Shown here in pieces: positions 53,514-59,684 of a DNA stretch of 64,000 bases (its first letter is position 1; every line of letters begins with the position of its first letter). The position numbers were made by a program, and so were the translations under genes. The notes under the pieces were generated by a model. That model had not been told where the DNA came from, did no database searches, and saw only the letters and a program-made list of their open reading frames with translations. The stretch is from the NCBI GenBank assembly GCA_963712745.1, contig CAVQJC010000002.1, positions 1-64,000 of the forward strand. The letters are read 5' to 3'. This stretch comes from an uncultured Chloroflexia bacterium. GTDB lineage: Bacteria; Chloroflexota; Limnocylindria; Limnocylindrales; CSP1-4.

Positions 53514-53701
53514 CTGCGGCTCATTGTGCACCTCCACGGGCGCGGGCGCGAGATCCGTGTGTGCGTGCTCCTGCGCGACGAGCCAGAGCTCCCTTGGCAC
53601 CGTAGGACAGGGGGCACTGCCGCGGACCGCGATCATCAACCCGCGGCACAAGGTCGGCCTCGCTCGACGTGAAACGTGACGGTCGTGGTTATACTTCGGG
53701 T

Positions 53702-53938
53702 ATGAAGACCGCCGTTTCAGTCCCCACCGAGGTCTACGAGCAAGCTGAGGAGCTCGCGCAGCGAACTGGCCGAACGCGCAGTGAGATCTACAGCACGGCC
53801 TTGCGCGACTACCTCGCCCACCAGCAGACCGTGCCGGTGACGGCCGCTATGGACCGGGCCCTCGAAGAGATCGACCCCAGGCCTGATCCGTTCCTGGATG
53901 CGACAGCGCGTGAGACGTTGGCAGAAGCGGAGTGGTGA
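53702..53938 (+). CDS. ribbon-helix-helix antitoxin (MazE/ChpI-like)
   Basis: MKTAVSVP..VY..AE.LA...G..RSE.Y..AL..YL; overlaps the toxin gene; leaderless after TATACT at 53690. Confidence 0.88.
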   Translation: MKTAVSVPTEVYEQAEELAQRTGRTRSEIYSTALRDYLAHQQTVPVTAAMDRALEEIDPRPDPFLDATARETLAEAEW

Positions 53939-54276
53939 TCAGCCAGGGAGACGTCTGGTGGACGGATCTGCCTGACCCAGCGGGCTCAGAGTCAGGCTTT
54001 CGCAGACCGGTGATCGTCGTGCAGGGCGACCCCCTGAACCGCAGCCGAATCTCAACGGTCGTGTGCGTGGTTGTGACCAGCAACCTGAAGTGGGCCAGAG
54101 CACCGGGCAACGTCCGGCTCGCCGCGCGTGAGTCGGGCCTGCCGCGAGACTCCGTGGTCAACGTGTCGCAGATCTTCACGCTCGACCGCTCGCGACTGAC
54201 CGATCACGTGGGCGAGGTCGGGACCGCCAAGCTCGACACGATACTCGCCGGCATCGACGTCGTCCTGGGGCGATAG
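53932..54276 (+). CDS. mazF: MazF/PemK endoribonuclease toxin
   Basis: QGDVWW.DL..P.GSE.GFRRPVIVVQ, TSN, GLPRDSVVNVSQI.TLD. Confidence 0.93.
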   Translation: MVISQGDVWWTDLPDPAGSESGFRRPVIVVQGDPLNRSRISTVVCVVVTSNLKWARAPGNVRLAARESGLPRDSVVNVSQIFTLDRSRLTDHVGEVGTAKLDTILAGIDVVLGR

Positions 54277-54317
54277 CGACCAATCGACCGGCCGATGTCG
54301 CCAGGCGCTATGGCCCG

Positions 54318-54350
54318 GATCCATAGACCGCAGCGCCTCGGTTCCAATGC
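54318..54350 (+). repeat. degenerate partial copy of the tRNA-Thr 3'-half repeat (copy 0)
   Basis: gatccatagaccgcagcgcctcggttccaatgc matches the consensus at 23 of 33 positions without gaps (counted by eye). Confidence 0.5.
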
Positions 54351-54597
54351 TTGACTCTGGCGATCCACGGTCGTCGCCCCAGCGCGACCGACGCCTGCGC
54401 TGACCCCTTCGTGGCCGCCGCCACTCCGGTAGGAAGGCTTGGAGTGGCCGCGGCCCTGGGCGACCAGGACCCAGGGCCGGACCAGATGCCGCCGGGACCA
54501 GGAACGGTGGCACGCATCGTGGCCTGGGGCACACAGCCACCGATCTGTGTGGCCGGCGAGCCACATCACGCGGTGGTCGGTGCCTGCGCGTCCTCGC

Positions 54598-54658
54598 GAT
54601 TCGCAAACAGCAGGTCCTCGGTCCAGGTCCGAGCGTCGGCTCCATTCCCCGCACGCGA
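54598..54658 (+). repeat. tRNA-Thr 3'-half-derived att-like repeat (copy A)
   Basis: gattcgcaaacagcaggtcctcggtccaggtccgagcgtcggctcca+ttccccgcacgcga: anticodon 3' strand, T-arm CTCGG/CCGAG, acceptor strand ending TCCA. Confidence 0.8.
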
Positions 54659-54818
54659 CAGAGGCGGCTGCGCGATCGGAGGGCGAGCGGCCGGTCGAAA
54701 GCGGCACGACTCGTGATAGGGCGCGAGTGGCTGGTTCTCGGAATCGCTTCCGCGGGTCAGGATGCCCAGGTGAAGGCGCCGCTGGATGGGCCGAACCACC
54801 TTGAGCGGACCTCGCCGC

Positions 54819-55226
54819 CTATCGGTGTGTAAGCCGCTCCACGGGCTGGCCGGTGATGTCTGCGATGAGCTCGAAGTCCTTGTCAAGATGCAGGACCGTC
54901 AGTCGTGCCACTTCAGCGGTCGCGGCGATGAGCAGGTCAGGGATGGATGGAGCGCGGTGTTGACCACGGTCGGCGAGCGCGGTCTGGACCCGGACAGCTC
55001 GATCCTCGATCACCGGCGTGAGGTACTCAGTAGGCATCGTCGCCAGCGGCGGCCGCGCGAACCCCGACCGCAGGTCGTCCGCAGTGCGAGCGGAGAACCC
55101 GACCTCAAGACGCGTGACGGTGCTGACCCGCACCAGCCCGCGCTGGATCCTTGACGCCCATTCGCCTGCATCGGGACTCTGAGCGAGGCGGACAAGCGCG
55201 GACTTGTCGATCAGCCAGACGGTCAC
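54819..55226 (-). CDS. vapC: VapC PIN-domain toxin
   Basis: [40 protein letters not shown] overlap with the antitoxin gene. Confidence 0.93.
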
Positions 55227-57471: not shown

Positions 57472-57518
57472 TCGTACTTAGTACGATACCATGACCGCCA
57501 AGAGCCGTACTTAGTACG
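57472..57518. promoter_or_regulatory. two TetR operator palindromes CGTAC-TTA-GTACG in the divergent promoter
   Basis: Copies at 57472-57486 and 57506-57518, overlapping TTGACT(57463)-N18-TACCAT. Confidence 0.75.
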
Positions 57519-57542
57519 AATCAGACGACGAAGGAGTTCGAG

Positions 57543-58586
57543 ATGCAGACGACGACCCGCGACGAGGCGGTCGCGACAGGGATGGCGAATGAGCAAGCGG
57601 CGACAGCGACGATGCGTGCGATCGTCCAGCGAGCGTACGGCTCAGCGGAGACGCTCGAGCTTGGCGACATCGCGCGACCGACGGTCGCTGCCGACGAGGT
57701 GCTCATCGAGGTCCACGCCGCTGGCGTCGACCGCGGCGTCTGGCACCTCATGACCGGGATGCCGTATCTCGTCCGACTGATGGGCTACGGCCTGCGTCGA
57801 CCGGCGCAGCCGGTGCCGGGGGCGGACGTCGCCGGGCGCGTCGTAGCGATCGGCGATGATGTGGAGCGCTTCGGCGTGGGCGACGAGGTCTTCGGCATCG
57901 CCGACGGCTCGTTCGCGGAGTTCGCGGTCGCGAAGGAGCACAAGCTCGCCCACAAGCCTGCCTCGATCACGCACGAGCAGGCGGCAGTCGCCTCGATCTC
58001 CGGTATCACCGCGCTCCAGGCATTGGCCGACATCGGCAAGGTCGAGGCGGGCCAGCACGTGCTCGTGATCGGGGCTTCCGGGGGCGTCGGCAACTACGCG
58101 GTCCAGATCGCGAAGGCCATCGGCGCGTACGTCACCGGCGTCGCGAGCACCGCCAAGCTCGAGCTCGTTCGGTCACTCGGGGCCGACGACGTCATCGACT
58201 ACACGGCCGACGACTACCTCGACGGATCCCGGCGCTTCGACCTCATCATCGATATCGGCGGCCGCAACCCGCTGCGACGTCTGCGCAAGGCGCTGACGTC
58301 TGCGGGCACGCTCGTCATCGTCGGCGGCGAGGGCGGGGATCGGCTCACGGGCGGCATGGCCCGCCAGATCGGCGCGCTGCTCTGGTCACCGTTCGTATCA
58401 CAGCGGCTGACGATGTTCATCAGCACGGAGGACCACCGCTTCATCGACCGGCTCGCCGAGTTCATCGAGCGGGGAGAGGTCACCCCACCCGTGGGTGCGC
58501 GCTACGCGCTGGAGGATGCGCCAGCGGCTATCGCGGATCTGGCGGCCGGACGCGCCGAGGGCAAGTCGGTCATCCTCGTCCGCTAG
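57543..58586 (+). CDS. zinc-independent MDR oxidoreductase (NADPH:quinone reductase-like)
   Basis: EVLIEVHAAG, PGADVAG.V..G..V..F.VGDEV, GASGGVG, LGADDVIDY, GKSVI. Confidence 0.92.
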   Translation: MQTTTRDEAVATGMANEQAATATMRAIVQRAYGSAETLELGDIARPTVAADEVLIEVHAAGVDRGVWHLMTGMPYLVRLMGYGLRRPAQPVPGADVAGRVVAIGDDVERFGVGDEVFGIADGSFAEFAVAKEHKLAHKPASITHEQAAVASISGITALQALADIGKVEAGQHVLVIGASGGVGNYAVQIAKAIGAYVTGVASTAKLELVRSLGADDVIDYTADDYLDGSRRFDLIIDIGGRNPLRRLRKALTSAGTLVIVGGEGGDRLTGGMARQIGALLWSPFVSQRLTMFISTEDHRFIDRLAEFIERGEVTPPVGARYALEDAPAAIADLAAGRAEGKSVILVR

Positions 58587-58726
58587 GATCGCCCGGCAGG
58601 CGGCTGCGCGGGCTCCGAGGCTGGCCGAGGAGTCCGTCCTCGCTGATGAAGGCACCAAGCATCGTGCCGAGCGCTTCTGAGGCGCTTGACTTACATCACC
58701 GACTCGACGAGTGATATCATCTGACC

Positions 58727-58969
58727 ATGATCCGTACGCAAGTGTCCCTTACCCCAGAGCAGATGCGACGGCTCCGTCAGGAGGCACGCCGCCGGCACGT
58801 CTCCCTCGCAGCCGTCGTGCGCGATGCCGTCGATCGTGTCGTGCCCGACGAGGATGAGCTACGGCACGATCGTGTCGATGCGCTCCTGAGCGTGGCCGGG
58901 TCTGTGGCCTCGGGTAGCGGCACGGTCGCGAGAGACCATGACGAGGTGCTGGCGGAAGGTCGCTGGTGA
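58727..58969 (+). CDS. vapB: CopG-type RHH antitoxin
   Basis: MIRTQVSLT.EQ...LR.EA.RR.VSLA.VVR.AVD, ARDHDE; leaderless after TATCAT; GTGA overlap with the toxin gene. Confidence 0.88.
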   Translation: MIRTQVSLTPEQMRRLRQEARRRHVSLAAVVRDAVDRVVPDEDELRHDRVDALLSVAGSVASGSGTVARDHDEVLAEGRW

Positions 58970-59358
58970 CCCTGTTCGTGGACACCAGCGGGATCATCGC
59001 CTTGGTCGACCGCGATGATGCAGCACATACTGGGGCCGTAGCGGCGTTTTCCATGGGCCACGACGAGCCGCTCGTGACACATGCCTACGTAGTCGTCGAG
59101 ACCCTTGCCGTCGCTCGACGGCGCTTCGGCGCCGCCGTCGCTGCCGACCTGGTCGATCGCGTCCTGCCCGCCCTCGTGGTGCATGAGGTGGACTCGGAGC
59201 TCCATGCCTCGGCGCTCGTGGCCTTCCGCGAGACCATCGAGTCTTCGGTCTCACTCGTAGACCGGACGAGTTTCGCGTTCATGCGTCGCGAGGCTATCGG
59301 CCGCGCCATCGCGCTCGACGTGGACTTCAGGACAGCGGGGTTCGAGACGGTCCCCTGA
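58966..59358 (+). CDS. vapC: VapC PIN-domain toxin
   Basis: LFVDTSGIIAL, VVVET, SLVDRTSF..M, ALD.DF...GF. Confidence 0.92.
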   Translation: MTLFVDTSGIIALVDRDDAAHTGAVAAFSMGHDEPLVTHAYVVVETLAVARRRFGAAVAADLVDRVLPALVVHEVDSELHASALVAFRETIESSVSLVDRTSFAFMRREAIGRAIALDVDFRTAGFETVP

Positions 59359-59379
59359 CGTCCGCGCGGCGTACTTTGG

Positions 59380-59440
59380 GATCCGCAAACGGCGGGTCCT
59401 CGGGGCAGATCCGAGCGTCGGCTCCACACCCCGAGCGTGA
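59380..59440 (+). repeat. tRNA-Thr 3'-half-derived att-like repeat (copy C)
   Basis: gatccgcaaacggcgggtcctcggggcagatccgagcgtcggctcca+caccccgagcgtga. Confidence 0.8.
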
Positions 59441-59684
59441 ACTGGCCCCGTTTCGGGCTACCGGCTGCCTGGAACAGCATGCCCTGACCTCCGCGCTGAC
59501 CCCTGGCTACTCCGTCAACCTTGCACGAAGACCGCCACCGTCGGTCCGTCTGGCGAGCACCTGGCCGCGTTCTCGACAAGGTCGGTGGCCATGCGCGCGA
59601 CGCTGTCGCCGGCATGCCCCGCTTGACCAGGAAGAGCGAGAGGGTCGAGGGGAGTGACCGGCCTCGATATCCCGGTCGAAGCCG

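Follow-up and report, generated by a model that had tools for sequence, protein, structure and literature searches.

Half-tRNA repeats between toxin-antitoxin modules of an uncultured Limnocylindrales bacterium: probable attachment-site scars of serial integration at tRNA-Thr

How do small toxin-antitoxin (TA) modules come to be punctuated by 3' halves of a tRNA-Thr gene, at a locus that holds neither the intact tRNA nor a recombinase? We analyzed positions 1-64,000 (64,000 nucleotides, hereafter the window) of contig C2 (CAVQJC010000002.1) from an uncultured Limnocylindrales bacterium (GCA_963712745.1), a bin (G000) of 20 contigs and 4.2 Mb that is 84.5% complete with 5% contamination. An initial annotation had traced four tRNA-Thr halves in the window to one mobile attachment (att) site and proposed an integron-like platform of TA cassettes mobilized in trans. 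We favor another reading, to which we give a probability of about 0.68: the repeats are att scars from serial integration at tRNA-Thr(CGT), followed by decay into cassettes like cis-mobilizable elements (CIMEs). All genomes compared are metagenome-assembled genomes (MAGs); the genus set comprises 49 genomes (G-codes), and L-codes denote individual fetched stretches or contigs.

Half-tRNA-Thr copies in the window

A repeat search returned a direct-repeat family of 61 nt at 54598, 56586, and 59380, with identities of 100, 72, and 82% to the reference copy. ARAGORN finds 47 tRNA genes in the 20-contig bin, and among them tRNA-Thr(CGT) at C5:295866-295940 is the best match for each of these copies, A, B, and C (40/45 identical positions, E 2.6e-10; 28/31, E 1e-6; and 28/32, E 6e-5, respectively); the similarity spans the anticodon loop to the CCA end. 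A unit profile of 140 positions, built from 11 copies and run on the whole 4.2-Mb bin, also detects all three (E 8.5e-16, 3.5e-9, and 2.8e-29). Three of the four co-oriented halves of the initial annotation are thus confirmed, and the fourth, copy 0, is weak and decayed. The copies are arranged as follows:

54317-54410, plus strand: copy 0, a putative decayed unit, about 33 nt shorter than the model and split into the pieces 54317-54348 and 54387-54410
54589-54667, plus strand: copy A, with left arm GTCCTCGCGA, tRNA-Thr(CGT) 3' half at 54600-54644, and tail; profile positions 4-82
56596-56646, plus strand: copy B, a partial tRNA-Thr half with tail, the anticodon-loop part missing; profile positions 23-73
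59372-59506, plus strand: copy C, a full unit with tRNA-Thr half at 59382-59426; profile positions 5-138

In a local nhmmer search of the 321 nt between mazF and copy A, the first piece of copy 0 scores 6.8 bits (E 0.0011), a value reached by none of 300 mononucleotide shuffles, and the second piece, collinear with the first, scores 1.2 bits (E 0.056). The genome-wide profile search does not recover copy 0, and a comparison with tRNAs yields only a common 9-nt word; we accept it as a probable decayed copy of the repeat. Of the features pointed out in the initial annotation, the TCCAG T-loop common to A and B is present, as are the 14-nt tail and the 12-mer (54397 and 59493), which belongs to the last element of the longer unit described below. 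Copy C carries the tail, GCCCCGTTTCGGGC, AACAGCATG, and two CTGACC(C/T)C motifs after its tRNA half, and copy A is without the hairpin and without the CTGACCCCT part. What is mutated in A, B, and C is the T-loop, where a tRNA is under the strongest constraint. The window copies are also the most diverged ones (89% for A versus 93 to 100% for most copies on C5), and the TTCGTAA core has one mismatch in A and two in C, is absent from B, and is badly decayed in copy 0. Judged from these sequences, the window copies themselves look like fossils. As had been stated, the window has no intact tRNA-Thr (ARAGORN), the upstream side of the repeats being occupied by a PBP1A gene, and no local integrase is found, since neither PF00589 nor PF00239 has a match on C2.

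Structure of the repeat unit

The aligned copies show that the repeat exceeds 61 nt and forms a unit of about 140 nt. Its parts are a left arm (about 10 nt), the tRNA half from TTCGTAA, a tail of 14 to 19 nt, a hairpin-like stretch GCCCGTTTCGGGC, a second AACAGCAGG, and CTGACCCCT twice. The left arms fall into approximately three sequence classes (e.g., GTCCTCGCGA, GTACCTCT.., and GTCCTCTACA). In an alignment of 35 full-length units, the tRNA similarity starts at TTCGTAA in every unit, and within the half, 40 consecutive nt show a conservation of at least 90%. The anticodon loop is a canonical integrase sublocation in tRNA genes, and the tRNA identity of A, B, C, and all 35 units runs from this crossover position. 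Nearly every half has an arm of about 85 nt behind it, and in several relatives the whole arm sits 3' of the real tRNA-Thr gene; the distal arm is absent from about a third of the units, A and B included. The tail, previously taken as a non-tRNA mark of mobile copies, also lies directly 3' of the genuine tRNA-Thr gene on C5 and so does not single out the displaced copies.

Part of the core, AACAGCAGG, recurs in the arm about 75 nt past its first occurrence, and the arm also contains CTGACCCCT twice, 13 nt apart (59470-59505 in the window, and all full units); in sequence, these repeats resemble arm-type protein-binding repeats. Both units of G016 (L010, from G016:C7, at 14526; L009, from G016:C9, at 3053) carry a paired T-stem change, CTCAG/CTGAG for CTCGG/CCGAG, which probably tracks that species' own tRNA-Thr. 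Folding of four strands of three units as single-stranded DNA gives z-scores of -0.03 to -0.55, with 59 to 91 of 200 shuffles folding equally well, and so lends no support to these three units as attC-like single-stranded hairpins.

Arrays on other contigs and in the genus

On C5, the real tRNA-Thr(CGT) gene is followed by 12 co-oriented units over 82 kb, the last one 224 nt from the contig end; the bin has a further unit on C9 and a partial one on C8. A genus search with a 147-nt unit as the query (E of 1e-6 or less) finds matches in 41 of the 49 genomes and at least two matches in 23 of them, with the highest number, 17, in G000, although such unit counts depend on profile thresholds. The copies thus belong to one att-type family that recurs elsewhere in the genome and in relatives, as had been suggested. 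At the order level, 3 of 16 small genomes match, in the tRNA part only. A contig scan with the doubled CTGACCCCT motif is too loose (a real unit at 6 of 119 loci, among the matches listed); within the same listed matches, the MAGs that contain units bear the titles Chloroflexi, Chloroflexia, or Candidatus Limnocylindrales. An intact tRNA-Thr(CGT) heads the array in eight fetched stretches, that is, in G000 and in seven stretches from relatives, but not in the window. The notion of a platform away from any tRNA gene does not hold, because the main array stands at an intact tRNA-Thr gene and a tRNA-Arg(GCG) gene, a half of which is found within the window set, is only 6.4 kb away from that set.

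From 23 fetched stretches we collected 69 unit matches and 44 same-strand intervals, which have a median of 2.76 kb and a range of 0.8 to 41 kb; 24 of the 44 are shorter than 3.5 kb. Cassettes of 16 to 41 kb are also present, genes occur on both strands, and some units of G016 are inverted. The cargo of the C5 array was surveyed at C5:288-377 kb, where 72 of 77 open reading frames called by a simple GC3-based picker were scanned, the first five upstream genes being left out. Two cassettes consist of a single gene each, for a Fic protein and for a DUF4143 ATPase, and the cargo further includes vapBC, one PIN gene, and one AbiEi-like gene, along with sensors, transporters, an IS256-type transposase fragment, broken Opp genes, and a metabolic operon. 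Cargo other than TA genes adjoins most of the units. Upstream of tRNA-Thr, C5 encodes ABC-transporter permeases.

The content between repeats differs among relatives and interrupts synteny, so that the variation in cassette content proposed as a check by the initial annotation was indeed found. The Fic cassette is bounded by units in seven stretches; it comes first after the tRNA in G051, G008, and G022 and fifth in G000, as accretion predicts. At the Fic position of L025 (G044:C18; 738-1916) and L026 (G051:C52; 2468-3757), the Fic protein is only 50% identical to the one shared at 81 to 90% by five other stretches, which, from sequence, looks like one cassette replaced by a distant allele.

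Halves of other tRNAs also occur in the bin. A second array, of tRNA-Gly 3' halves from the anticodon loop, lies at C20:652560-660458 and C11:57-5950, with a spacing of 1.3 to 2.9 kb, and runs off the contig end; several of its cassettes look by eye like extracytoplasmic function (ECF) sigma/anti-sigma pairs, and PF00589 has no match on C20. Two more tRNA-Gly halves are located on C15 (9282 and 18842) and three tRNA-Asn(GTT) halves on C1 (128064, 189671, and 198540).

Integrases and a viral attP-like site

The integrases of the bin amount to four PF00589 matches (two on C4, one each on C12 and C17) and one resolvase (C1). PF00589 has no match on C5, and an integrase beside an att site is thus seen on neither C2 nor C5; in CIMEs it is lost by definition. 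The match on C12 (6303-7207, minus strand, 62 bits) is a tyrosine recombinase about 400 nt from a partial tRNA-Gly(CCC)-like 3' portion, and it is the sole integrase of the bin beside a tRNA fragment. Among ten array-bearing relatives, seven have no integrase match in or near the arrays, and PF00239 gave nothing in the arrays of the five genomes tested. Broken integrase pieces are present in G014:C11 and G016:C9 and, in G016:C7, 5 to 12 kb from units, and repeats of G024:C2 and G016:C9 have phage terminase genes as neighbors. The sole intact integrase near the arrays of the ten relatives is a 297-amino-acid recombinase of G024:C2, located 1.3 kb after a unit and beside the terminase gene. It was considered as the common enzyme and rejected, as 46 of the 48 other genus genomes have no match at E of 1e-15 or less and the other two have 31 to 39% identity.

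An exact 39-nt search of viral contigs returned a single contig (L166; 13.9 kb, 69% GC). At L166 5056-6322, 28 nt separate the end of a PF00589 integrase gene of 395 amino acids (5056-6240, 69 bits) from a 52-nt stretch on the other strand that is identical to the tRNA-Thr(CGT) half. The identity begins in the anticodon loop, and no complete tRNA is detected by ARAGORN at this site. The integrase and the half have a Prim-Pol gene on one side and a portal gene on the other. This layout is that expected of int and attP in a phage genome, and the site is a candidate attP. Relatives of the L166 integrase occur in 28 of the 49 genus genomes (E of 1e-8 or less) and are absent from the G000 bin; the array fragments of G016:C9 are among them, at 37 to 41% identity. 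Two further scans of the viral contigs, one for the half with its tail and one for the left arm with the core, had no hits. The genomic tRNA-Thr gene that the initial annotation proposed to locate lies on C5, which carries no integrase, and the viral attP-like site has no tail.

Gene modules of the window and the tRNA-Arg context

Pfam searches bear out the modules that had been described, i.e., MazEF, three PIN/RHH pairs, and a TetR regulator with a Zn-dehydrogenase, and the repeats do lie at module borders. The other features of the region are listed below:

50940..53651, minus strand: class A penicillin-binding protein of PBP1A type, the left neighbor (Pfam Transgly and Transpeptidase)
53702-53938, plus strand: mazE-like RHH antitoxin (Pfam RHH_5)
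53932-54276, plus strand: MazF/PemK toxin (Pfam PemK_toxin, 3.8e-26)
54819-55232 and 55223-55444, minus strand: vapC1 (PIN) and vapB1 (FitA-like RHH), respectively (Pfam), co-oriented with tRNA-Arg
55577-55615, minus strand: 3' half of tRNA-Arg(GCG), tRNA positions 37-75, 36/39 identical (E 2.8e-8 in the whole bin)
55785-56216 and 56230-56460, minus strand: vapC2 (PIN) and vapB2 (RHH), respectively (Pfam)
56787-57452, minus strand: TetR regulator (Pfam)
57543-58586, plus strand: Zn-dependent dehydrogenase of quinone-oxidoreductase type (Pfam)
58665..59358, plus strand: vapBC3 module, with a promoter-like stretch from 58665, vapB3 at 58727-58969, and vapC3 at 58966-59358 (Pfam RHH_1 and PIN)
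59685-60743, minus strand: corA (Pfam)
60791-63460, plus strand: GH15 glucodextranase-like gene (Pfam)

The three PIN toxin matches have E values of 8.8e-9, 8.9e-10, and 3.7e-8, each with an RHH antitoxin upstream. In the predicted MazEF and VapBC pairs, a small antitoxin gene overlaps or abuts the toxin gene, which is the layout of type II TA systems. TA pairs stand right at unit borders in four cases (mazF/copy 0, vapC3/copy C, the C5 PIN gene/unit, and vapC/real tRNA). The TetR-dehydrogenase pair is found at 71 to 75% nucleotide identity in many genus genomes, a core-like divergence, and mazEF homologs of 82 to 85% nucleotide identity lie downstream of tRNA-Thr in G021, G051, G044, and G010. 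The stretch upstream of vapBC3, TTGACT-17-TATCAT, was read by eye, and the promoter scan did not list it. At its first codons (58727-58750), vapB3 reads ATGATCCGTACGCAAG in the window and ATGATTCGTACGCAAG in G024 and G054, similar to the att core GATTCGTAAACAGCAGG; the G024/G054 versions have eight nucleotides (GATTCGTA) exactly in common with that core, which was judged to be a probable chance match. In an estuary metatranscriptome, five error-free contigs of 150 to 170 nt cover mazE, mazF, vapC1, the 5' end of the dehydrogenase gene, and vapB3 (window 53752-58848).

The tRNA-Arg half, missed by the initial annotation, begins right after the anticodon and lies between vapBC1 and vapBC2. An intact tRNA-Arg(GCG) is located at C2:65874-65949, on the same strand as its half and 1.9 kb past the end of the window. 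The half and the gene bound a 10.26-kb segment comprising vapBC2, copy B, TetR, the dehydrogenase gene, vapBC3, copy C, corA, GH15, and an MFS-like gene, with no integrase in it, which makes the array a mosaic of Thr-type and Arg-type att remnants. In G050, an intact tRNA-Arg is followed by a vapC1 homolog and then by a Thr-type unit in the opposite orientation. This G050 DNA next to tRNA-Arg has 86% identity to window 54619-55087, matches the sequence behind the Arg half in the window, and looks like the uninterrupted state. In G059, a pair with 81% nucleotide identity to vapBC2 stands directly downstream of an intact tRNA-Arg(GCG). C2:33.6-65.9 kb has no counterpart on the syntenic part of C1, and the window set is inside this variable region downstream of tRNA-Arg(GCG). 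PBP1A and corA, given earlier as the flanks, are not stable core flanks, as they are never adjacent in the relatives examined; a PBP1A ortholog of G024 closes an 87-kb tRNA-Thr array and is oriented as its units are. In G010, G044, G051, and G021, the real tRNA-Thr has homologs of mazEF, TetR-dehydrogenase, and vapBC3 downstream of it and on its own strand, so that the window modules correspond to the distal tRNA-Thr region of relatives, here linked to the tRNA-Arg region. The mazEF-TetR synteny of G010 and G044 could not be squared with a simple insertion of 10.3 kb at tRNA-Arg.

C2:1-117 kb is syntenic with C1:337-435 kb at 70 to 80% nucleotide identity (94% in the rRNA part), with an identical tRNA order and about 79 kb aligned. 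The sequences suggest that the bin holds either a mix of two related organisms or a very large old duplication of a region of about 100 kb, and the presence of two related versions of one region in it is a warning for its use.

Probable cassette movement between species

Window 58665-59427 runs from the promoter-like stretch through vapBC3 to the half of copy C and shares 691 of 763 positions (91%) with G024:C1:1265416-1266174, where vapBC3 forms a 0.85-kb cassette between two units, and window 58670-59505 is 88% identical to G054. The adjacent TetR-dehydrogenase pair has only 71% (G024) and 73% (G054) nucleotide identity, and PBP1A has 67 to 69% amino acid identity to G024. The left end of the vapBC3 module is at 58665 or 58670 whether a unit, the dehydrogenase gene, or another block precedes it; the window and G054 have no unit on its left, and in G054 the F15 block abuts vapBC3 at L029 9230/9231 in a join without a unit. 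On C5, 343884-346546 is 94.5% identical to G054 over 2690 nt, beginning exactly at the first base of the half, and other C5 cargo has 92 to 99% amino acid identity to G054, G053, or G022, compared with 84 to 86% for a conserved flank gene. From these comparisons, some cassettes have probably moved between species, and either an integrase acting in trans or homologous recombination between the ~140-nt units could have brought this about. A short-read check for excision had four runs to draw on, all of them short low-depth contigs; no skip between units appears among the joints listed, in cover too thin to be informative, and the 13 joints listed skip 98 to 372 nt, mostly with sides shorter than 30 nt, and were judged untrustworthy.

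Origin of the arrays

The sharp common left border in the anticodon loop, the classes of left arms, the phage-like remnants, and the viral integrase gene beside a half together indicate that the units most likely come from crossovers by tyrosine integrases, and the near-total absence of integrases makes the present cassettes CIME-like. The arrays most likely arose, on the sequence evidence, by repeated insertion at tRNA-Thr. Elements with tyrosine integrases would recombine in the anticodon loop of tRNA-Thr(CGT), each insertion rebuilding the tRNA and displacing the previous 3' half with its downstream arm outward, and such accretion would build arrays of cassettes bounded by half-tRNA units. 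Later loss of integrase and transfer genes would leave integrase-free, att-flanked CIME-type cassettes, in which TA pairs at element ends would persist, probably through addiction; the four copies of the window would represent an old, decaying satellite of the tRNA-Thr system. What the data show directly is the identity of the repeats with the tRNA, the structure and distribution of the units, the lack of integrases, an attP-like site in a virus, and cassettes that are in some cases highly identical between species; we infer this order of events, the retention of TA pairs by addiction, and a route of Thr-type units to the tRNA-Arg region.

Several observations weigh against serial integration and decay. 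No integrase or resolvase is encoded among the 72 proteins scanned in the 82-kb C5 array, and with one intact integrase and a few fragments in ten relatives, the decay would have to be nearly complete. The viral attP-like site has neither tail nor arm, and the arm is present behind nearly every half and behind the real tRNA of several genomes; most incoming units must therefore have carried half and arm, to which circles derived from arrays are better suited than phages. The repeats point away from PBP1A in the window and towards it in G024, and an attempt to derive the window arrangement from that of G024 by a single inversion failed. Given two related versions of a ~100-kb region in the bin (on C1 and C2), the tRNA-Thr contig C5 may come from another organism than the window does.

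The arm carried by incoming units, which suggests an origin in arrays, and the modules that are far more alike between species than their neighbors keep an active system under consideration. In it, an integrase encoded by a phage, a plasmid, or an unlinked gene would act in trans, excising circles that consist of cargo and a single unit and integrating them at the tRNA or at any unit, and the arrays would be a shared, shuffled reservoir of TA, defense, and accessory genes. Arrays nearly free of integrases in G000 and ten relatives would suit such a platform, and so would the short intervals, the clean one-gene or one-operon cassettes (Fic in seven stretches, the DUF4143 ATPase, and the vapBC3 cassette of G024), the identities of vapBC3 and other cargo set out above, and a vapBC3 left end that stays within 5 nt in three different contexts. 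However, no conserved integrase is linked to the arrays, the intact one of G024:C2 being nearly unique; cassettes reach 16 to 41 kb with genes on both strands, their order partly follows descent, vapBC3 has no left unit in the window and G054, and the window units have mutated or missing cores. No cassette-size circle or skip joint was seen either, in read cover too thin to count as a test. We consider it unlikely that such a platform is active, and equally doubtful that the units (3' half plus 85-nt arm) serve as recombination sites of an integron-like system without a resident integrase that borrows its enzymes from phages. Such an integrase-less system would exchange small circles between species by insertion at tRNA-Thr and, by analogy, at tRNA-Gly, tRNA-Asn, and tRNA-Arg; mobilization of cassettes in trans, as first proposed, is possible. 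Exchange might also do without a site-specific enzyme, the ~140-nt units acting as portable homology for RecA-dependent recombination after DNA uptake or transduction, with integrases making the first units only. The 40-nt conserved stretch, the lack of integrases in the arrays, mosaic joins without a unit such as that of the F15 block and vapBC3, and the inverted units of G016 would all fit. Site-specific crossovers are indicated, though, by shared blocks that start exactly at the anticodon-loop position and by left arms in discrete classes, and the window units, only 72 to 85% alike, would be poor substrates for homologous recombination; we hold this explanation to be possible but less than probable.

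The halves had alternatively been proposed to be transcribed as fragment decoys or regulators of neighboring VapC nucleases. Several TA operons end 20 to 50 nt upstream of a co-oriented half (mazF/copy 0, vapC3/copy C, and the PIN gene C5:352976-353365/unit 353409), so that read-through transcripts could contain a half. Yet Rfam gives no match at E of 1 or less except a chance snoRNA-like one, a promoter and terminator scan found nothing near the units, and RNAalifold on 35 units retains the T-arm only, whose loop is what is mutated in A, B, and C; most units border non-TA cargo, and halves of like kind exist for tRNA-Gly, tRNA-Asn, and tRNA-Arg. The metatranscriptome run has no clean contig over any unit, and as DNA carry-over is not excluded in it, its contigs say nothing on the expression of halves. 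A decoy function is accordingly very improbable.

Relation to known systems and significance

Chromosomal integrons and superintegrons are long arrays of small, TA-rich cassettes with one repeat family and a content that differs between relatives. In contrast, the arrays described here have no intI, attI, or Pc next to them and a unit that is not an attC-like hairpin, and their cassettes have their own promoters (the promoter-like stretch), lie on both strands, and extend to tens of kilobases. The array is not an integron by any defining feature tested, and the description as integron-like is not supported in this respect.

CIMEs of the ICESt1/ICESt3 type in Streptococcus are described as elements bounded by attL and attR, without integration and transfer genes, arranged in tandem at the 3' end of the target gene, and they may be mobilized by the integrase of a neighbor (PMC5704250). 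The arrays of this genus likewise consist of att-bounded tandem cassettes without an integrase; they differ in having up to 12 units per array, many one-gene or one-operon cassettes, no functional neighbor element, and several tRNAs targeted in one bin. Within the Chloroflexota, PMC3146451 describes multiple tandem islands of Dehalococcoides within 100 kb downstream of one small RNA gene, ssrA, bounded by a direct repeat of the gene's 3' end plus extra conserved bases; 15 of them have no integration module and were proposed to be CIMEs, and the target is the tmRNA T-loop, with a 20-bp repeat and the serine recombinase DsiB in 16 islands. Here, by comparison, the target is the tRNA-Thr anticodon loop, the repeat combines a 45-nt half with an 85-nt arm, and integrases, almost always absent, are represented by traces of the tyrosine type. 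In the tycheposon islands of Prochlorococcus, successive tRNA integrations push older elements inward, with degenerate elements and partial tRNAs scattered (bioRxiv 10.1101/2020.12.28.424599). The likeness is in the island pattern only, the present genomes being high-GC Chloroflexota from sediment and soil, and neither the TA content nor the long conserved arm appears in the portion of that description seen.

The repeats are thus a known kind of genomic scar, here unusually extensive and nearly free of its enzymes: one genus carries up to a dozen att-bounded cassettes at a single tRNA and has kept almost no integrases. Partial tRNAs are usable for mapping island borders in uncultured Chloroflexota, and the cassettes offer specific examples, open to testing, of small TA and accessory modules that passed from one species to another. 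Should they not be mobilized in trans, they illustrate clearly how TA pairs can survive the loss of the mobile elements with which they arrived; if trans-mobilization is true, the arrays would constitute a second, independent route to integron-like gene reservoirs and would be living reservoirs rather than graveyards.

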